DNA of 64,000 nucleotides from Omnitrophica WOR_2 bacterium GWF2_43_52. Lineage in GTDB: Bacteria; Omnitrophota; Gorgyraeia; Gygaellales; UBA12090. Positions 6,702 through 28,004 of this stretch are shown here, piece after piece (position 1 is the stretch's first letter; each line of letters starts with the position of its first letter). Under the pieces are notes generated by a model. That model ran no database searches and was not told the origin of the DNA. It saw nothing but the letters and a program-made list of their open reading frames with translations. Where the stretch lies: NCBI GenBank assembly GCA_001805445.1, contig MHGF01000036.1, positions 7,526 through 71,525 of the forward strand, written 5' to 3'. Both the position numbers and the translations under genes were made by a program.

Positions 6702-6773
6702 TAATTAGGGACAGACACTATTTATTAAAAATGGCGCGTCTAATATGGAAATAAATAGTGTCTGTCCCTAATT
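6702..6773. repeat. Perfect 23-bp inverted repeat (AATTAGGGACAGACACTATTTAT / ATAAATAGTGTCTGTCCCTAATT) around a 26-nt loop, between the rpoD stop and tRNA-Gly
   Basis: Read directly. No U-tract follows, so it is not a canonical intrinsic terminator. Could be a processing or regulatory hairpin or a mini-palindromic element. Confidence 0.7.
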
Positions 6774-6777
6774 AAGC

Positions 6778-6850
6778 GCGGGAGTAGTTCAGTGGTAGAA
6801 CAATAGCCTTCCAAGCTATATATGGGGGTTCGATTCCCCTCTCCCGCTTT
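6778..6850 (+). tRNA. tRNA-Gly (anticodon TCC)
   Basis: Cloverleaf parsed by eye: acceptor GCGGGAG/CTCCCGC, D-stem GTTC/GAAC, anticodon stem ATAGC/GCTAT with loop CTTCCAA (anticodon TCC), T-loop TTCGATT. CCA not encoded. Confidence 0.85.
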
Positions 6851-9887: not shown

Positions 9888-10110
9888 TTAGAATAGCGTA
9901 GGTACAGGAAAGATGATGAGGGGGCGTGCCCCGTACAAAACCTGTAATTTACAGAGCAAAGTTTTGTTCGGGGCGTGCCCCGAACAAATTTTCTGTATAG
10001 GATGTTGATATAAATTAAATTTTATAAAATAGATACCTGGGTATAGTAATTGACTATGGGGGGGCGTGCCCCGTACAAAATTGCTATACTTAGATATAAC
10101 AATTTTGTAC
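9868..10110. repeat. Array of GGGGCGTGCCCCG palindromes, each followed by (T/A)ACAAAA(CCTGTAATT), between the GIY-YIG gene and tRNA-Pro
   Basis: Units at about 9921, 9969 and 10059. The 9-mer CGGGGCGTG is identical to the tRNA-Pro 5' end at 10110. TTTGTTCGGGGCGTGCCCCGAACAAA is itself a long palindrome. Spacing is irregular. Confidence 0.75.
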
Positions 10111-10184
10111 GGGGCGTGGCTCAGTTTGGCTAGAGCGCTTGAATGGGGTTCAAGAGGTCGACGGTTCAAGTCCGTCCGCCCCGA
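10110..10184 (+). tRNA. tRNA-Pro (anticodon GGG)
   Basis: Acceptor CGGGGCG/CGCCCCG, D-stem GCTC/GAGC, anticodon stem CTTGA/TCAAG with loop ATGGGGT (anticodon GGG), T-arm ACGG-TTCAAGT-CCGT, discriminator A. Confidence 0.75.
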
Positions 10185-10249
10185 CTACACTCTTTTAACG
10201 TTTACCCTATTACACCGTTAAATTAATTATTATTGGTTAACGGTGTAAT

Positions 10250-10375
10250 AAAGGGGGTGTGGGGGAGACCGTCACCCACGATTGGGGAGTGCTCAGCGAT
10301 CCGCCGTAGGCGGAGAGCGCCGAAGGGGGGCTTGCTCCCCTAGCGGAAGTGCGGAGGCAAATTCCGCTTACCCAT
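10250..10375. repeat. Copy 1 of a ~100-nt GC-rich conserved element (AAGGGGTGTGGGGGAGACCGTC.CCCACG.TTGGGG.GTGCTCAGCGATCCGCCGTAGGCGGAGAGCGCCGAAGGGGGGCTTGC.CCCCTAGCGGAAGTGCG)
   Basis: Near-identical second copy at 15402-15530. Contains nested hairpins (CCGCC-GTAG-GCGG; GGGGGG-CTTGC-CCCC). GC-rich island in AT-rich DNA, upstream of the GroES-like gene. Preceded by the inverted repeat TTACACCGTTAA...TTAACGGTGTAA. Confidence 0.75.
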
Positions 10376-10398: not shown

Positions 10399-10767
10399 AT
10401 GGCAGATAAAATTGATAAAAAATTGATCGTCGTAGGTGATCGGGTGCTGATTATCCCTGATGACGGCCAGAATCGCACCGATACAGGGTTATATCTACCG
10501 CAAGGAGTAAAAGAGAAGGAAAAGGTACAGAGTGGGACTATTGTCAAGATTGGCCCTGGGTATCCTGTGGTTGACCCTTCGGCGCTCGAGGTAGAGCCAT
10601 GGCAGGCGCCAAAGGTAGAGAATAGGTATTTCCCGCTTTTGGCAAAGGAAGGCGATTATTGTATTTTCTTAAGAAACGCCGGAGTAGAGATAGAATATGA
10701 GGGGAAAAAATATATCGTGGCTCCCCATTCCGCAATCCTTGTGCTTTTAAGAAATACGTTAGAATAG
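10399..10767 (+). CDS. GroES/Cpn10-like small protein
   Basis: 122 aa; N-terminal KKLIVVGDRVLIIPDD and overall beta-rich pattern resemble co-chaperonin GroES; longer than canonical. Confidence 0.45.
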   Translation: MADKIDKKLIVVGDRVLIIPDDGQNRTDTGLYLPQGVKEKEKVQSGTIVKIGPGYPVVDPSALEVEPWQAPKVENRYFPLLAKEGDYCIFLRNAGVEIEYEGKKYIVAPHSAILVLLRNTLE

Positions 10768-11280: not shown

Positions 11281-12576
11281 ATGATGGACAAAATTAATAT
11301 CGGGGTGATCGGCTTTGGTACCGTCGGAAGCGGAGTTATCCGCGCCTTACTGGCAAAACCACACTTTTTTGAGAAGAAAACAGGCGCACGGCTGGTAGTA
11401 AAAACTATTTGCGACAAAGATATCCGAACCAAGCGTGAGGTGAGTGTCGAAAAGAGTATCCTGACGACTGATGTCAACAGTATTCTACATGACGCTGACG
11501 TGTCTATTGTTGTTGAGCTTATCGGGGGGATACATCCGGCGAAAGAATTTATTTTAGAAGCATTGAGGCGCGGAAAGCATGTGGTTACCGCCAATAAAGC
11601 GCTCTTGGCAGAATGCGGGGAAGAAATTTTTCAGGCGGCGAAAAAAGCAAATGTGGATTTATATTTTGAGGCATCGGTGGGCGGAGGTATCCCAATTATT
11701 AAGGCGCTCAGGGAATCATTAGGAGGGAATCATATTGATACCCTCTTGGGGATTGTGAATGGAACATCGAATTATATCTTGACGTCTATGGATGAAGAGG
11801 GTTTGAGTTTTAATCAGGCGCTCATAGAAGCAAAAAAGAAAGGCTACGCGGAGAAGAATCCTGCCTTGGATATTAAGGGCATTGATTCGGCGCACAAACT
11901 GGCCATCTTGTCTTTACTGAGCTTTGGTAAAAGCATTGCCAGCAACGCGATCTATGTCGAAGGCATAGAAGATATTTCTTTGAGCGATATTCGTTATGCC
12001 CAGGATTTTGGCTATGTGATAAAACTTTTGGCAATCGCGAAAAATATCAACGGCCAGTTAGAGGCACGGGTTCATCCCACGCTTTTATCCAAGGAACATC
12101 TGCTTTCTAATGTCAAGGGTGTCTATAACGCGATTTATGTGCACGGGGATTTGGCGGGAGGCACATTGTTTTATGGCCGCGGCGCAGGCAGTAAGCCCGC
12201 GGCAAGTTCAGTCTTAGGTGATATTATAGATGTGGCGCGAAACATAAAACATAATTCCGTAAACCGGGTGCCTATCTATGTAGAAGATAAGACGATTAAG
12301 AAAGTCCGGGATATAGATGATATAGAAACCAGGTATTATCTGAGGCTCTCGGTTATCGATAAGCCCGGCGGGTTAGGAAAAATTGCCGCGATTTTAGGCC
12401 GGCACGGCATTTCTATTGCCTCAGTAGCGCAAAAAGAAAGAAAACAAGCAAAGATTGTCCCTGTTGTTATGATGACTCATGACGCAAAGGAAAGAAATAT
12501 GCGTTTGGCGTTAGAGGAAATCAGCAGGCTTGGCGGGATTAAGAAAAAAACTATAGCTATACGGGTTGAACGGTAA
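11281..12576 (+). CDS. hom: Homoserine dehydrogenase
   Basis: N-terminal NAD-binding INIGVIGFGTVGSGV, catalytic domain, C-terminal ACT domain; 431 aa. Confidence 0.9.
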   Translation: MMDKINIGVIGFGTVGSGVIRALLAKPHFFEKKTGARLVVKTICDKDIRTKREVSVEKSILTTDVNSILHDADVSIVVELIGGIHPAKEFILEALRRGKHVVTANKALLAECGEEIFQAAKKANVDLYFEASVGGGIPIIKALRESLGGNHIDTLLGIVNGTSNYILTSMDEEGLSFNQALIEAKKKGYAEKNPALDIKGIDSAHKLAILSLLSFGKSIASNAIYVEGIEDISLSDIRYAQDFGYVIKLLAIAKNINGQLEARVHPTLLSKEHLLSNVKGVYNAIYVHGDLAGGTLFYGRGAGSKPAASSVLGDIIDVARNIKHNSVNRVPIYVEDKTIKKVRDIDDIETRYYLRLSVIDKPGGLGKIAAILGRHGISIASVAQKERKQAKIVPVVMMTHDAKERNMRLALEEISRLGGIKKKTIAIRVER

Positions 12577-13652: not shown

Positions 13653-13726
13653 CAGCTGTCAGCTTTCGGCTGTCAGCTATCAGCTTTGAGCTGAAAGCCG
13701 GATGCTGATAGCTGAAGGCTGAAAAA

Positions 13727-15090: not shown

Positions 15091-15573
15091 TTACTAGTGC
15101 GCTGTGACATTAGATTTTGACATTGCGCTATCATGTTTGAATATAGGGCGGAGGTCCTGTCAAGGTTATGTTTTCGCGGGGACGTTCGGCCTGCTCCTGC
15201 GGCAGACCTCACTCGGCGTAAATTTTCGCGCCCGCCACTAAAAGCGAGAGCGGGTCCAAGCCGCGAAAATTTCCGTACGCCCCGCTCAAACACAACCTTG
15301 CCACCCCCGCTGGCAAGTGAAGTGTTGCAGATAGCATGAATTTATGTCACGGAGCACTAGTACACTGTGAAATTAATTTTCAATAATTGACAGTGTAGTA
15401 AAAGGGGTGTGGGGGAGACCGTCCCCCACGCTTGGGGGGGTGCTCAGCGATCCGCCGTAGGCGGAGAGCGCCGAAGGGGGCTTGCCCCCCTAGCGCCTGC
15501 CTGCCTGCCGGCAGGGAAGTGCGCCCTCAAACCACCGTATATTATCAATAATTAAGTTCACAGCGCACTAGTT
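15091..15573. repeat. About 480-bp noncoding segment bounded by 13-bp inverted repeats (CTAGTGCGCTGTG / CACAGCGCACTAG, with a degenerate internal copy at 15346-15361) holding a GC-rich block and copy 2 of the GC-rich element
   Basis: Read directly. Internal inverted repeat GGCGTAAATTTTCGCGC / GCGAAAATTTCCGTACGCC. Strong GC skew relative to flanks. The 68-aa ORF at 15133-15339 is low-complexity (P/R/A-rich) and judged noncoding. Confidence 0.6.
15402..15530. repeat. Copy 2 of the GC-rich conserved element, carrying a nested insertion of the 22-bp CCTGCCTGCCGGCAGG palindrome between CTAGCG and GGAAGTGCG
   Basis: Copy 1 reads CTAGCGGAAGTGCG. Copy 2 reads CTAGCG-CCTGCCTGCCTGCCGGCAG-GGAAGTGCG. 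Confidence 0.75.
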
Positions 15574-16473: not shown

Positions 16474-16536
16474 ATAGAGCTCAAAGCGTTCTCTAGTACA
16501 CCGTTATATTAATTATTGCCTGCCTGCCACGGGCAG

Positions 16537-16705
16537 GGATATCAGGGTATCAGGGAATTGGGATTTGGGGATCGGGCAATCGAAGGATTAGGGAAAAACC
16601 GATATTTTGTTCCCAATATCCTGATATCCTAATCACCAAATCCTAATCTCCCGATCACCTAATCTCCGCATTTAACATGGTTAATTACATATATTATACG
16701 AGGAG
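16537..16705. repeat. Copy B of the ATCAGG-hexamer palindromic element plus conserved tail CCGCATTTAACATGGTTAATTACATATATTATACG (promoter-like) upstream of lemA
   Basis: GGATATCAGGGTATCAGGGAATTGGGATTTGGGG...CCCAATATCCTGATATCCTAATCACCAAATCCTAATCTCCCGATCACCTAATCTCC. Immediately preceded by the GCCTGCCTGCCACGGGCAGGG palindrome (16518-16538). Confidence 0.8.
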
Positions 16706-24788: not shown

Positions 24789-24940
24789 CAGCAGAGCTGA
24801 ACATGTTATAGAGGAAGATGATAATTGTTGCGTGTATCGTTAACCTTGCCTACCGGCAGGCAGGCGTGTACCGCTTGCCGTAACGGTAAACGGTTAGCGG
24901 TAAACGGTACACGAAACATAATTTTTAACATAGGAGAGAT

Positions 24941-25157: not shown

Positions 25158-28004
25158 ATGGAAGAATTAAACAGCCGTTACAATTCAAAAGAGGTGGAAG
25201 ACAGGATGTATGCCTTTTGGCAAAGTGAAAACCTGTTTGCCGCCAAAGTTAATCCTGATAAGAAGCCTTTTTGTATCGTTATCCCGCCGCCTAATGTAAC
25301 AGGAATATTACATATGGGCCACGCGCTCAATAACACCTATCAAGACATTTTAATCCGTCTTAGGCGTATGCAAGGCTTTGAGTCTTTGTGGATGCCCGGG
25401 ACCGATCACGCCGGTATTGCCACCCAGAATGTGGTAGAACGCCAACTTGCCAAGGAGGGCTTGAAGCGCCAGGATTTAGGCAGGGACAAGTTTTTGGAGA
25501 GAGTCTGGCAGTGGAAGGAGCAATACGGCTCAACGATTATACGGCAGTTAAAGAAATTGGGCGCGTCAAGTGACTGGCAGCGGGTGCGTTTTACTATGGA
25601 TGAGGAATACTCTCAGTCGGTAAAAGAGGTATTTGTTGCCTTGTGGAATAAAGGCCTGATTTATCAGGATGATAAGATCATCAACTGGTGCCCTCGCTGC
25701 CAAACGGCCTTATCGGATGAGGAAGCTGCTCATCGCGAAGTTCAGGGGAATTTGTATTATATACGGTATTCTCTTAAAGAAGAAATTCGAAATTCGAAAT
25801 TCGAAATTCGAGATAAATCTCAAATCGAAAATCACACATCGCAAAATTATATCGTGGTAGCAACCACACGGCCGGAGACGATGGTAGGGGATACGGCGGT
25901 TGCTCTGAATCCAAAAGATGAGCGCTATAAGCACTTAATTGGTAAAACGGTTATTGTGCCTCTAATAGAACGGGAAATTAAAATAATTGCCGATGAATTG
26001 ATTGATATGGAATTTGGAACCGGTTTGGTGAAGGTTACCCCGGCCCATGACTCCAATGATTATGAGATGGGCAAGCGCCATACACTAGAGTTTATCAACA
26101 TTATGCATCCTAACGCGGTTTTAAATACGAATGCCGGTGACTATAACGGCTTGGATAGGTTTGAGGCGCGAGAGGCAATTATTGAAGATTTAAAAGAAAG
26201 AAAACTCATTGAAAAGATTGAGCCGCATACCCATGCCGTGGGGCATTGTTATCGCTGCTCAACCGTGATAGAACCGTATTTGTCAAGGCAGTGGTTTGTG
26301 AAAATGGAGCCGTTGGCAAAACCGGCGATTGAAGCGGTAAAAGACGGGAGAATCAATTTTTATCCTAAACGCTGGGCCAAGGTTTATCTTAACTGGATGG
26401 AGAATATCAGGGATTGGTGTATCTCTCGCCAAATCTGGTGGGGGCATAGACTGCCGGTTTATTATTGCAAAGAATGCTTGAAAACCGGCAGTCAGTGTAA
26501 AGTTGAAAGTGTAAAGTGTAAAGAAAAAGGAATTATTGTGGCTAAAGTTAAGCCCCAGAAGTGTCCGGATTGCGGTGGAGGGGATATCTATCAGGATGAA
26601 GATGTTTTGGATACCTGGTTTTCTTCCTGGCTGTGGCCGTTTGCTACTTTTTATTGGCCGTTTAATACGAAGGATGAAGCCTGCCTGCCGGCAAGGCAGG
26701 GACGAAGGATGAAGGACGAAAAAGATTTAAACTATTTTTATCCTACGTCTGTCTTAGTGACCGCTCCTGAAATTATTTTTTTCTGGGTGGCGCGTATGAT
26801 TATGGCTGGTTTTGAATTCATGGGAAAAGAACCGTTTAAGGATGTCTATATCCACGGCACCGTGCGGGATGTAGAAGGTAAAAAGATGTCTAAGTCCTTA
26901 GGCAATATCATTGACCCTTTGGAAATTATTGAGAAATACGGCACTGATGCGCTTCGCTTCAGCCTTATTTCTATAACCGCAAGCGGGCAGGATGTCTTTT
27001 TATCCGAGCAGAAGTTCGAGGTGGGCAGGAATTTTGCCAATAAACTCTGGAATGCCTCGCGGTTTTCACTTATGAATTTGGATTTGAGTTTAGTAAATGT
27101 GGATTTATGCGTTTTATTTGAGAAGGAAGACCTTGAACTCCCTGAGCGATGGATCTTGAGCCGGTTTTATTCAATGCTTAGTGCCTTAAATAAGGCGTTA
27201 GATAACTACCGTTTTAATGACGCGGCTAATATCCTCTATGAATTTGTATGGCATGAGTTTTGTGATTGGTATATAGAGCTGGCAAAGCCTAATTTGGTGA
27301 GCGGGTTAGCGGGTGAGCGGGTGAGCGGGGAAAGCAAGAATACACAGATAGTATTGTATAAGGTTTTAGAAAAAACCTTAAGGTGTTTGCATCCGTTTAT
27401 GCCCTTTATTACCGAAGAAATCTGGCAGAAACTTTCTTTAACGTCCCTCGTCCCTCGTCCCCCGTCCTTCGTAAGTATTATGACCCAACCGTGGCCGCAT
27501 GTGCAAAAAAAGATAATCGATAAGAAGGCCGAAAGCCAAATGCAGCTGGCTATTGAGGTTATTACCGCGATCAGAAATTTAAAAGCTGAGGTAAAGATTG
27601 CTCCGGCGCAGGCGGTTAAAGTAATGCTCATAGCTAAGGATAAAGAAGTAAAAAGCGCCTTGGATACAGTAGCGAGCTATATCACGAATTTGGGAAGGGT
27701 AGAGGCTTTAACAATTCAAGGAGCGCCCGCAAAGCTGAAAAAAGGTATAAGTGCTATAGTACATGAGGTGCAGGTATTTTTAGAGCTTGAAGGATTGCTT
27801 GATATTGATCAGGAAATAGAACGGCTTACTAAGGAAGCCGATGCGCTTGCGGGATCTTTAAAGTCAAAGGAATCCCGGCTAAAAAATAAGGATTTCCTCA
27901 AAAAAGCACCCGAAGAAATTGTGGAAAAAGAGAAAGAGTCGCTGGCACAAGGCCAGGAAAAATTGGCAAGCCTGCAGAGGGTTATTAGTGAGCTTAAGAA
28001 ATAA
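25158..28004 (+). CDS. valS: Valine--tRNA ligase
   Basis: HIGH (PPNVTGILHMGHALN), KMSKS, editing domain, C-terminal coiled-coil; 948 aa. Carries five short repeat-derived in-frame insertions (25783-25810, 26494-26523, 26667-26714, 27298-27331, 27443-27472). Confidence 0.95.
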   Translation: MEELNSRYNSKEVEDRMYAFWQSENLFAAKVNPDKKPFCIVIPPPNVTGILHMGHALNNTYQDILIRLRRMQGFESLWMPGTDHAGIATQNVVERQLAKEGLKRQDLGRDKFLERVWQWKEQYGSTIIRQLKKLGASSDWQRVRFTMDEEYSQSVKEVFVALWNKGLIYQDDKIINWCPRCQTALSDEEAAHREVQGNLYYIRYSLKEEIRNSKFEIRDKSQIENHTSQNYIVVATTRPETMVGDTAVALNPKDERYKHLIGKTVIVPLIEREIKIIADELIDMEFGTGLVKVTPAHDSNDYEMGKRHTLEFINIMHPNAVLNTNAGDYNGLDRFEAREAIIEDLKERKLIEKIEPHTHAVGHCYRCSTVIEPYLSRQWFVKMEPLAKPAIEAVKDGRINFYPKRWAKVYLNWMENIRDWCISRQIWWGHRLPVYYCKECLKTGSQCKVESVKCKEKGIIVAKVKPQKCPDCGGGDIYQDEDVLDTWFSSWLWPFATFYWPFNTKDEACLPARQGRRMKDEKDLNYFYPTSVLVTAPEIIFFWVARMIMAGFEFMGKEPFKDVYIHGTVRDVEGKKMSKSLGNIIDPLEIIEKYGTDALRFSLISITASGQDVFLSEQKFEVGRNFANKLWNASRFSLMNLDLSLVNVDLCVLFEKEDLELPERWILSRFYSMLSALNKALDNYRFNDAANILYEFVWHEFCDWYIELAKPNLVSGLAGERVSGESKNTQIVLYKVLEKTLRCLHPFMPFITEEIWQKLSLTSLVPRPPSFVSIMTQPWPHVQKKIIDKKAESQMQLAIEVITAIRNLKAEVKIAPAQAVKVMLIAKDKEVKSALDTVASYITNLGRVEALTIQGAPAKLKKGISAIVHEVQVFLELEGLLDIDQEIERLTKEADALAGSLKSKESRLKNKDFLKKAPEEIVEKEKESLAQGQEKLASLQRVISELKK
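25783..25810 (+). repeat. Intragenic tandem repeat (GAAATTC)x4 within valS
   Basis: Read directly. Lies in a surface-loop region that is about 13 aa longer than E. coli ValRS. Confidence 0.8.
26667..26714 (+). repeat. 22-bp palindrome CCTGCCTGCCGGCAAGGCAGGG flanked by perfect 13-bp direct repeats ACGAAGGATGAAG, inserted in-frame inside valS
   Basis: Read directly. The same palindrome family occurs at 15496-15516, 16518-16538 and (reverse orientation) 24844-24866. Confidence 0.8.

Follow-up and report, generated by a model that had tools for sequence, protein, structure and literature searches.

The 21-nt sequence CCTGCCTGCCGGCAAGGCAGG at 26680–26700, inside the valine-tRNA ligase gene valS of Omnitrophica WOR_2 bacterium GWF2_43_52, is one copy of an insertional element of very small size (hereafter P) that encodes nothing and forms a hairpin; it is inserted exactly, with target bases neither duplicated nor lost. 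All coordinates (Table 1) refer to the window, i.e. the whole stretch of 64,000 nucleotides that was analyzed. Taking the evidence as a whole, P is probably best explained as a tiny hairpin insertional element that would be supplied in trans by a replication-linked route. The valS copy matches the family pattern CCTGCCTGCCGGC(N0-2)AGGCAGG, and the family consensus is (CCTG)2CC.GG(CAGG)2 with 0–2 additional central bases, a centre of GCCGGC, and a total length of 20–22 nt. As predicted DNA hairpins, perfect P forms an 8-bp stem of −8.0 kcal/mol and the valS copy reaches −6.8 kcal/mol.

Table 1. Positions of P, its variants and associated features in the window.
Feature	Position	Strand	Remarks
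Host gene valS (valine-tRNA ligase, 948 aa)	25158..28004	+	insert loop aa 500-523
P element, 21-nt form CCTGCCTGCCGGCAAGGCAGG	26680..26700	+	exact sequence, deletion test, hairpin fold, pattern match
Left part of heptamer array (ACGAAGG ATGAAG)	26667..26679	+	equals left 13-bp repeat
Right part of heptamer array (G ACGAAGG ATGAAGG ACGAAAA)	26701..26722	+	includes right repeat 26702-26714
P variant CCTGCCTGCCTGCCGGCAGG, 20 nt	15496..15515	+	filled site within one copy of ~150-bp GC-rich repeat
Paralogous empty site CTAGCG/GAAG (break at slash)	10345..10346	+	other ~150-bp repeat copy
P variant CCTGCCTGCCACGGGCAGG	16519..16537	+	intergenic
P variant CCTGCCTGCCGGTAGGCAAGG	24844..24864	-	intergenic; adjoins heptamer-array hairpin 24865-24913

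The preliminary description of this DNA had proposed a 22-bp palindrome inserted in frame into valS and bracketed by 13-bp direct repeats resembling a target-site duplication. The 22-mer CCTGCCTGCCGGCAAGGCAGGG (26680–26701) is exact, with 0 matches in shuffled sequences, as are the 13-bp repeats ACGAAGGATGAAG at 26667–26679 and 26702–26714 (mean of 0.05 in shuffles), and both lie far above chance. The site falls within the gene, the reading frame runs through it uninterrupted, and its residues are translated. The insertion is thus in frame as proposed, but its size was not as proposed, since the unit that preserves the frame is 21 nt. Removal of 21 nt from valS left a 941-aa reading frame that was still open, whereas removal of 22 nt, or of 35 nt (palindrome plus one repeat), produced premature stops. 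Because the unit is the 21-nt form, it adds seven codons (ACLPARQ) and valS stays open.

Excision of the 21 nt yields a phase-perfect array, ACGAAGG ATGAAGG ACGAAGG ATGAAGG ACGAAAA, with a junction periodicity score of 0.81 at period 7. TRF calls a heptamer tandem array at 26700–26720, and further heptamer units continue in phase downstream of the 13-bp repeats. These “direct repeats” are two periods of an array that P has split. A 22-bp transposable palindrome of MITE-like or RPE-like type, with a 13-bp target-site duplication in valS, could draw on the perfect repeats directly adjoining the palindrome and on the related copies elsewhere in the window, and yet we regard it as very improbable. 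The repeat-to-repeat period of 35 nt (22 + 13) is not a multiple of 3 and would frameshift an essential gene, in line with the premature stop of the 35-nt deletion; the repeats keep heptamer phase with the downstream units; and the array is rejoined in phase when 21 nt are removed, likewise at loci in other phyla. At the family level, no flanking duplication above chance was seen in 182 non-redundant copies of P (flanking repeats of 2–5 nt occurred at or near the chance rate), and none was seen in three clean comparisons of empty and filled sites.

These three comparisons (a repeat pair in the window, a phage tRNA-Met gene, and tandem arrays) all showed exact insertion without duplication. The two copies of the ~150-bp repeat in the window align with a clean 20-nt gap and zero duplication. 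In the phage tRNA-Met gene P is present at loci L163 and L130, and the site is empty at L269 and L270; the insertion lies in the variable loop, and ARAGORN predicted a tRNA of 92 nt in which P forms an extra arm and, where P is missing, a canonical tRNA of 72 nt. Many tandem arrays are split in phase by P. The only bias in the flank profile of P was that T is under-represented at −1 and A at +1. Phase-continuous tandem arrays were found at 12/123 P junctions compared to 0.13% of 2345 control positions, a preference for short-period arrays of ~75-fold; the window and loci L271, L121, L040, and L111 provide examples, and the majority of copies lie outside arrays. Two other target preferences were considered and rejected. 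Targeting of hairpin loops in general was not supported, as the junction left by deletion of P fell in a predicted loop in 28% of cases vs. 27% of controls, with equal folding energy. Apparent insertions into tRNA D-loops in CPR and Bacteroidota turned out to lie in tRNA-like 5' fragments that ARAGORN did not call with or without P, and the phage tRNA-Met is the only clean case of P in a tRNA.

P sits in a different valS loop in each of three Omnitrophota lineages, represented by the window, by L001 (CCTGCCTGCCGGCGAGGCAGG), and by L271, where a perfect 20-mer splits TTACGAG CTACGAG TTA/CGAG at the slash. The valS insertions are independent across lineages. For the window valS itself, the predicted pre-insertion sequence gave 0 exact metagenome matches, a protein-guided metagenome scan yielded no relative closer than 71%, and the same-species contigs (99.95–99.99% identical) were every one filled at this site. 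As no empty valS allele was found, the order of events is inferred from the other loci, and the heptamer array could instead have grown after the arrival of P.

The loop that received P, flanked by WPF and DLNYFYPTS, had been described as about 17 aa longer than in E. coli ValRS; this extension was confirmed against Thermus ValRS (PDB 1GAX), with the extra residues falling between 473 and 474, the loop being placed by sequence alignment to 1GAX alone. An AlphaFold2 prediction had low confidence (mean pLDDT of 64.8, with residues 479–540 below 50) and was left unused. Among 120 Omnitrophota ValRS sequences this loop is hypervariable, with lengths of 16–47 aa around a basal length of 19 that is seen in many orthologues and also occurs in other phyla. 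In an alignment of orthologues (n = 60) the palindrome residues were found solely in the same-species sequence P0001 (100% identical), and all cluster members covering the loop carry them as well; the nearest other orthologue (P0002, 81% identity) holds an unrelated insert there. With orthologous loops either basal or differently filled, the palindrome is a lineage-specific insertion and not an ancient loop. The heptamer array is itself a lineage-specific expansion within a length-tolerant loop, and several ValRS loops are filled by 7–8-nt arrays. The 17-aa extension is a recent, repeat-derived addition and no functional domain.

A scan of genome stretches identified more than 120 carriers of P, which is a lower bound, in Bacteroidota (cultured isolates included, among them Flavobacteriia and Cytophagia), Patescibacteria, Omnitrophota, Planctomycetota, and other phyla; there were no cyanobacterial carriers among the first 120 matches listed. 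The cultured carriers include Aquiflexum lacus, Winogradskyella echinorum, Flagellimonas spp., and Gracilimonas amylolytica. Many copies are intergenic; others lie in loops of coding sequences, within further repeats, in a phage tRNA gene or on viral contigs, and P is found nested inside P and inside the 150-bp repeat. Most 8-kb blocks hold a single copy, and some genomes may therefore carry very few. In three other Omnitrophota, ~69 kb of syntenic DNA lacks P altogether, and the distribution is patchy among related genomes with shared gene order. The empty and filled pairs, the independent valS insertions, and the cross-phylum copies bear out the earlier proposal that the palindrome is a member of a dispersed family with the behaviour of an insertional element. 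An Rfam search of the window returned two tRNAs only, and the P sequence was not found in the literature searched.

Carriers are mostly metagenome-assembled genomes and library chimeras can create palindromes, so that an assembly, sequencing or contamination artefact had to be weighed; it is extremely improbable. The flanks are all different (GC 0.28 to 0.72), cultured isolates carry P, and so do 17 independent contigs of the window species (NCBI, JGI, ENA), of which the three examined are 99.95–99.99% identical to the window. Variants with 0–2 central bases exist, and coding copies show biases in reading frame and length. Local origin without mobility, in which a CCTG run grows by slippage and an inverted copy arises by template switching, would fit the composition of P, (CCTG)n + (CAGG)n, the variants that change by whole 4-nt units or central bases, and the presence in the same genomes of heptamer arrays that run on into their own reverse complement. 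We consider it unlikely, because P matched 56 viral stretches, compared to counts of 1, 0, 2, and 0 for its four matched controls: matched palindromes, including the arm-swapped GGCAGGCAGG/CCTGCCTGCC, were found 0–1 times and a half-scrambled non-palindromic control 2 times. Moreover, P stands as an exact GC-rich 20-mer within AT-rich arrays and a tRNA gene, and the empty sites have no CCTG seed.

Coding copies are translated and under selection. Long ORFs hold 22/127 copies, three reading frames through P are in use (LPAGRQ, PACRQAG, ACLPAGR), and the Cys-free frame LPAGRQ accounts for 13/21 (p = 0.007); the 21-nt form is enriched within coding DNA (p = 0.034). Besides the three valS loops, one pantothenate kinase gene carries P. 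If the family is confirmed, such inserts, which annotation pipelines now silently render as odd peptides (LPAGRQ, for example), would come to be seen as one origin of variation in protein loops and RNA arms. Placement inside coding loops, a tRNA variable loop, tandem arrays, and other copies of P also argues against P being a selected functional DNA or RNA motif (a protein-binding site, terminator stem or recombination site) whose valS copy is incidental or useful. A stable predicted hairpin, the GCCGGC centre, numerous intergenic copies, and an exact sequence kept across phyla would all suit a motif of this kind. We nonetheless find it quite improbable, as P is patchy among related genomes of equal gene order and has no consistent downstream T-run and no consistent association with a gene or position.

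P encodes nothing and has no common neighbour gene, and we infer that its copying or movement must depend on functions acting in trans. The ~75-fold array preference suggests that insertion would occur during replication, where DNA slips or turns single-stranded, by a route that might resemble that of hairpin-dependent single-strand elements (IS200/IS605, REP/RAYT). Clustering all-against-all of 3996 ORFs from P loci gave no recurrent protein family near P, with sharing confined to the phage structural genes of a single phage group, and no transposase turned up among the window genes examined. Housekeeping and polysaccharide genes were all that emerged when 20 window ORFs were scanned with Pfam and precomputed domains of the central 23 kb were consulted. 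The candidate explanation that P represents the collapsed ends of a longer element was rejected, as no element bounded by CTGCCTGCC...GGCAGGCAG was found in ~1 Mb of P-bearing DNA.

The small dispersed repeats (SDRs) of cyanobacteria are the closest analogue of P. Elhai et al. 2008 (Genome Res 18:1484) are said to have found SDRs nested in other repeats and within tandem heptamer arrays, and reportedly took them to be possibly mobile, with an enzyme not known. P resembles SDRs so described in lying within phase-continuous heptamer arrays and in being nested in P and in the 150-bp repeat. With SDR4–6 of Nostocaceae it shares the ~20–27 nt size class, hairpin formation, lack of coding capacity, and precise insertion, which in SDRs is likewise reported to leave no duplication. 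SDR5 is placed exactly between nucleotides 3 and 4 of HIP1 (PMC4390886), and SDRs have been reported only from Nostocaceae (PMC5861425). Unlike the SDRs as described, P occurs in Bacteroidota, Patescibacteria, Omnitrophota, Planctomycetota, other phyla, and viral contigs, and its sites also include genes for essential proteins and one for a tRNA. The carriers listed are not cyanobacteria, which argues against P belonging to SDR4, SDR5 or SDR6.

REPs are extragenic and usually number hundreds per genome, and single-strand HUH chemistry is not expected to duplicate its target. IS200/IS605 elements insert without duplication 3' of a fixed tetra- or pentanucleotide by means of TnpA (Y1 HUH). P shares with them the absence of duplication, but no fixed target motif was seen at its flanks. 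Among the window genes and P loci covered, neither a TnpA gene nor a RAYT-like gene was detected. REPs are short GC-rich imperfect palindromes of 21–65 bp (PMC3184786). One of their ends is marked by a conserved tetranucleotide, GTAG or CGTC (PMC3733652), and they are accompanied by a RAYT gene (PMC3116915). Like REP/REPIN, P is a short GC-rich palindrome, dispersed and non-autonomous; unlike REPs, it has no GTAG/CGTC tag and is found within genes, with many copies intragenic.

The parallel drawn earlier with Rickettsia palindromic elements (RPEs) holds for the outcome, since in both cases a housekeeping protein gains an insert in frame, and fails for the size of 20–22 nt and the lack of a conserved peptide. 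RPEs, described in Rickettsia genomes, are ~150 bp long, carry a conserved peptide ORF, form ten families, and are inserted in frame into unrelated housekeeping genes, where the protein tolerates them (PMC10969869). P, unlike RPEs, is found across phyla, and any of its three frames may be read. MITEs, too, are sometimes fused in frame to genes. Their terminal inverted repeats match those of an IS, and direct repeats of the target flank them (PMC3184786, PMC10969869). The bacterial examples listed measure ~100 to 435 bp. P is likewise non-autonomous with inverted-repeat ends, its arms being readable as 10-bp ends with nothing between, but it has no target-site duplication, parent IS ends or nearby transposase and measures only 20–22 nt.

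Polymerase slippage is the accepted origin of long simple-sequence repeats. The ACGAAGG/ATGAAGG array and the other valS arrays belong to such repeats with 7-nt units, and slippage accounts for the heptamer array but not for the P palindrome. Long simple-sequence repeats with 7-nt units figure in surveys by Mrazek and colleagues, which PMC4679880 and PMC4692102 summarise. For coding regions, PMC4679880 states that repeats were noted mainly where the unit length is a multiple of 3. The arrays observed here, with units of 7–8 nt, occupy several loops of one essential enzyme.

Mobile DNA is usually thought to require its own transposase gene or else recognisable ends of at least ~100 bp. P, by contrast, is a 20-nt hairpin inserted base-exactly in genomes from Bacteroidota to the candidate phyla radiation, and may be among the smallest insertional DNA elements and also among the most widespread. 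If this is confirmed, the Nostocaceae case, the one earlier report of such elements, becomes a general bacterial phenomenon, and the presence of P in cultured Flavobacteriia and Cytophagia would make the insertion mechanism experimentally testable. A broader reading, which we put forward only tentatively, is that P is an undescribed, cross-phylum, virus-borne insertional element of 20–22 nt, of the smallest class known, mobilised in trans by some widespread function of host or phage and entering its targets, often slippage-prone heptamer arrays, without duplicating them, and that together with those arrays and sister mini-hairpins it continually remodels permissive protein and RNA loops. The loops concerned would be those of essential proteins and RNAs of Omnitrophota, Patescibacteria, and Bacteroidota. 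The sister mini-hairpins include TCCGCC...GGCGGA and GGGACTGTCCC....

Four copies of the palindrome had been counted in the window. Related sequences do exist at three other loci, but they are variants and not copies of the 22-mer, which is matched elsewhere in the window only at 15500–15521 and with 3 mismatches. The relaxed pattern CTGCC-N2-10-GGCAG picked out three loci compared to 0.3 expected by chance, and exact CCTGCCTGCC is common to all three variants. The variant CCTGCCTGCCACGGGCAGG is followed directly by a G-rich 7–8-mer array and then by the reverse complement of the same array, and the variant type of CCTGCCTGCCGGTAGGCAAGG was seen again at loci L027 and L050.

The 22-mer CCTGCCTGCCGGCAAGGCAGGG lies within the valine-tRNA ligase gene valS, bracketed by perfect 13-bp repeats ACGAAGGATGAAG as reported in the preliminary description; in shuffled sequence the palindrome had 0 matches and the repeats averaged 0.05. 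By sequence alignment with the Thermus ValRS structure 1GAX, the encoded loop, bounded by WPE.T and DL..FYP, has 17 extra residues. The repeats had been read as a target-site duplication, and this reading fails. They are spaced 35 nt apart and read in different frames (T-K-D-E in copy one, R-R-M-K in copy two), and removal of 35 nt (palindrome plus one repeat) or of the 22-mer alone introduced premature stops. Removal of 21 nt (26680-26700) left an open frame of 941 aa reading ...WPFNTKDEGRRMKDEKDLNYFYPTS. The remaining DNA is ACGAAGG ATGAAGG ACGAAGG ATGAAGG ACGAAAA, a heptamer array in perfect phase, part of which Tandem Repeats Finder detects despite the insert. Since deleting the palindrome restores this array, the palindrome splits a tandem repeat with a 14-nt unit (2 x 7), and the 13-bp repeats are two of its periods. 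Alternatively, the array may have expanded after the palindrome arrived. Heptamer arrays as such are an established class ascribed to polymerase slippage (PMC4679880, PMC4692102).

Comparison with orthologues supports the reading of the palindrome as an insertion. The DTWFSS-to-FYPT segment varied between 16 and 47 residues across 120 Omnitrophota ValRS, with a basal length of 19, the usual length also in more distant ValRS genes from metagenomes. Among 60 aligned orthologues the loop residues of the window occur in the same-species protein only, and all same-species cluster members covering the loop keep them; the next closest orthologue, at 81% identity, carries an insert there that is unrelated. 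The window ValRS is identical or almost so to those of Omnitrophica WOR_2 bacterium GWF2_43_52 and GCA_003499645.1, and the near-identical cluster member P0121 is encoded on 17 independent contigs, which rules out an assembly artefact. Three of the 17 overlap the window at 99.95-99.99% identity; the P0121-encoding contigs showed no usable polymorphism. The valS event is a nested, two-layer, repeat-derived lengthening of a permissive loop.

Positions of the palindrome family P and of neighbouring features (window coordinates unless a locus is named)
Feature	Position	Detail
22-mer in valS	26680-26701	CCTGCCTGCCGGCAAGGCAGGG
13-bp repeats	26667-26679, 26702-26714	ACGAAGGATGAAG
valS	25158-28004	948 aa
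P variant	15496-15515	CCTGCCTGCCTGCCGGCAGG
P variant	16519-16537	CCTGCCTGCCACGGGCAGG
P variant	24844-24864, minus strand	CCTGCCTGCCGGTAGGCAAGG
valS array	25782-25811	GAAATTC
valS array	25815-25847	AAATCGC
valS array	26494-26523	AGTGTAA
valS array	27296-27329	GGTGAGCG
valS array	27442-27472	CGTCCCT
P in valS, window	aa 508	
P in valS, L001/P0014	aa 797	CCTGCCTGCCGGCGAGGCAGG
P in valS, L271/P0012	aa 751	perfect 20-mer splitting TTACGAG CTACGAG TTACGAG after the last TTA
27-nt repeat, valS of L124	~11548-11574 (loop 3)	GGGACTGTCCCCGAAGGGGACTGTCCC
27-nt repeat, valS of L188	~1023-1049	GGGACTGTCCCCGAAGGGGACTGTCCC
P-in-P sites	L024 1070; L055 467; L027 2815; L036 463; L161 7303; L134/L165	
P in tRNA-like D-loop	L019 4041; L049 2127; L038 3628	Patescibacteria
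P in tRNA-like D-loop	L116 67	Agriterribacter humi, contig end
P in tRNA-like D-loop	L175 515	viral
Composite repeat, empty	10207-10355	
Composite repeat, filled	15357-15525	
tRNA-Pro	10110-10185	
Array hairpins	13653-13724, 16538-16665, 24865-24913	
TCCGCC-loop-GGCGGA	10300-10314, 15451-15465; L101 354; L013, L019, L021, L042, L052	
GroES (Cpn10) ORF	10399-10767	122 aa
Inverted repeat	6702-6726 / 6750-6774	TAATTAGGGACAGACACTATTTATT, spacer 23 nt
tRNA-Gly	6778-6848	

The family to which the palindrome belongs, here P, spans phyla and is defined as CCTGCCTGCCGGC(N0-2)AGGCAGG. P was present in at least 120 stretches when one genome per species was scanned. The matches listed include Omnitrophota, Planctomycetota, many Patescibacteria, uncultured Gammaproteobacteria, Bdellovibrionales, Thermodesulfovibrio-type lineages and Chloroflexi, and also Bacteroidota, the last with cultured isolates (Winogradskyella echinorum, Flagellimonas spp., Gracilimonas amylolytica, Aquiflexum lacus at two loci, Longitalea luteola, Flavivirga and Agriterribacter humi). 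In a viral collection P occurred in 56 stretches, against 1, 0, 2 and 0 for four controls (two palindromes built to the same design, one sequence pairing the left arm with a scrambled right arm, and the palindrome with its arms swapped, GGCAGGCAGG/CCTGCCTGCC). Flanks differed at almost all loci, with local GC of 0.28-0.72. The three other window copies proposed earlier are present and related, but they are variants and not copies of the 22-mer; they share exact CCTGCCTGCC, and the relaxed pattern CTGCC-N2-10-GGCAG matches three window loci against 0.3 expected by chance.

P behaves like an exact insertion without duplication. Of the two copies of a GC-rich window repeat of ~150 bp, one reads CTAGCG-GAAG uninterrupted and the other holds an additional 20 nt (15496-15515) there, and nothing is duplicated. 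On viral contigs L163 and L130, P interrupts a tRNA-Met gene in its variable loop; L269 and L270, from related phages with ~77% identity over 1.7-2 kb, have the gene uninterrupted, and the difference is exactly the 20 nt of P. ARAGORN called a 92-nt tRNA with P as an extra arm; with P removed, the call was a canonical tRNA of 72 nt. Removing P gave a phase-continuous tandem array (period 5-9 nt, mostly 7-8) at 12 of 123 loci, compared with 0.13% of control positions (n=2345); the arrays split include GATATTG (L121), AAGGTCA (L040), TCTAAAA (L111) and that of the window. Flanking 2-5-nt repeats at 182 non-redundant copies were at or near the chance rate, and the sole flank signal was that T is avoided at -1 and A at +1. 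P also lies where D-loop meets D-stem in tRNA-like sequences, e.g. between GTAGCTCAGTTGGTA and GAGC. These are fragments and not intact tRNA genes, and ARAGORN made no call there with or without P; the L038 site is a partial 5' duplicate shortly upstream of an intact tRNA-Val.

P was found in three different valS loops in three Omnitrophota lineages, and valS has been struck independently in each. The L001 locus has two more copies within 22.7 kb, one inside a pantothenate kinase gene, where it lies in a larger lineage-specific insert. P was absent from ~69 kb of three other Omnitrophota sharing gene order; this absence and the differing valS loops indicate patchy presence at non-orthologous sites. 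The DTWFSS-FYPT loop is a hot spot for insertion: in it, L122 carries different GC hairpins (CATCCGCCTG...CAGGCGGATG and CGCCTACGGCG), L123 a heptamer array and then the reverse complement of that array, and L124 GTCCCCGAAGGGGAC, while L001 has no repeat-derived insert. Five further 7-8-nt arrays in window valS each coincide with a loop of variable length among orthologues. This essential enzyme has at least six repeat-derived loop extensions in the window. The identical 27-nt GGGACTGTCCCCGAAGGGGACTGTCCC occurs in different loops of two Omnitrophota valS genes, encodes GLSPKGTVP, a peptide recurring in several ValRS orthologues, and looks like a third insertional mini-hairpin family.

P is translated and under selection: long ORFs contain 22 of 127 copies. 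The cysteine-free frame LPAGRQ was used in 13 of 21 coding copies (binomial p = 0.007), and the frame-neutral 21-nt form made up 8/22 coding vs. 16/105 non-coding copies (Fisher p = 0.034).

P favours short-period arrays roughly 75-fold and nests inside other repeats and inside P itself. Copies lie at or near the centre of other P or P-like hairpins (e.g. P flanked by CCTGCCTGCCG and GCAGGCAG), which suggests repeated strikes on one structure. The idea that P enters hairpin loops failed (28% vs. 27% in controls). No gene was found to recur beside P, and no transposase among the window genes examined. Movement of P would be in trans and probably coupled to replication through DNA prone to slippage; hairpin-dependent single-strand chemistry, like that of IS200/IS605 or REP/RAYT, may be involved. 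The viral contig IMGVR_UViG_3300037242_000417 (29.5 kb; L159, L167, L168) has at least six copies, most of them central to two larger repeated units, P+GGGCGGCACAA and CCCATCCTCGCGG...P...CGAGGGTGGG.

The suggested parallel with Rickettsia palindromic elements did not hold beyond a shared outcome, as these are ~150 bp with their own ORF (PMC10969869). MITEs need target duplications and IS-like ends (PMC3184786); tests of P for both were negative. REPs lie outside genes, bear a GTAG or CGTC tag and are accompanied by RAYT genes (PMC3733652, PMC3116915); P resembles them in size and hairpin form but is without the tag. P would belong with the "very small mobile repeats", and its closest analogue is the small dispersed repeats of Nostocaceae. 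These are ~20 nt and possibly mobile (PMC2884548), SDR5 is precisely inserted into HIP1 (PMC4390886), and no lineage besides Nostocaceae is known to have them (PMC5861425). The literature searched contained neither the P sequence nor any description of such a hairpin, 20-22 nt long and inserted exactly and without duplication in various phyla and in viruses.

The window and other loci hold further repeats. The ~150-bp composite repeat (two copies, 87% identity; the empty one just 3' of tRNA-Pro) is made of mini-hairpins GGGGGAGACCGTCCCCC, TCCGCCGTAGGCGGA and GGGGGCTTGCCCCC, and an AT-rich inverted repeat (TATTACACCGTTAA / TTAACGGTGTAATA) precedes both copies. It had no match in Rfam and may represent a structured RNA or mini-elements stacked within one another. 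TCCGCC-loop-GGCGGA, a second family of mini-hairpins, has 20 copies in 13 of the loci examined (four same-composition controls: 0, 1, 4, 10). Its form TCCGCCAGCTGGCGGA occurs at five loci in several phyla, and the family co-occurs with P, directly adjoining it in L101. Intergenic array hairpins consist of 7-8-nt tandem units followed by their reverse complement (e.g. CAGCTGT... / ...GCTGAAA). The CAGC[TC]GT type also occurs in the valS loop of other Omnitrophota, including L123, and encodes the QPSA...KAESRKLKAE peptides of ValRS orthologues P0007, P0037, P0048 and P0055. Immediately after the GC-rich repeat, the GroES ORF matches Pfam over residues 9-56 only (profile positions 2-47 of 93); this gene, too, may have an insert, or it may be disrupted. 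A perfect 25-nt inverted repeat ends 4 nt ahead of tRNA-Gly.
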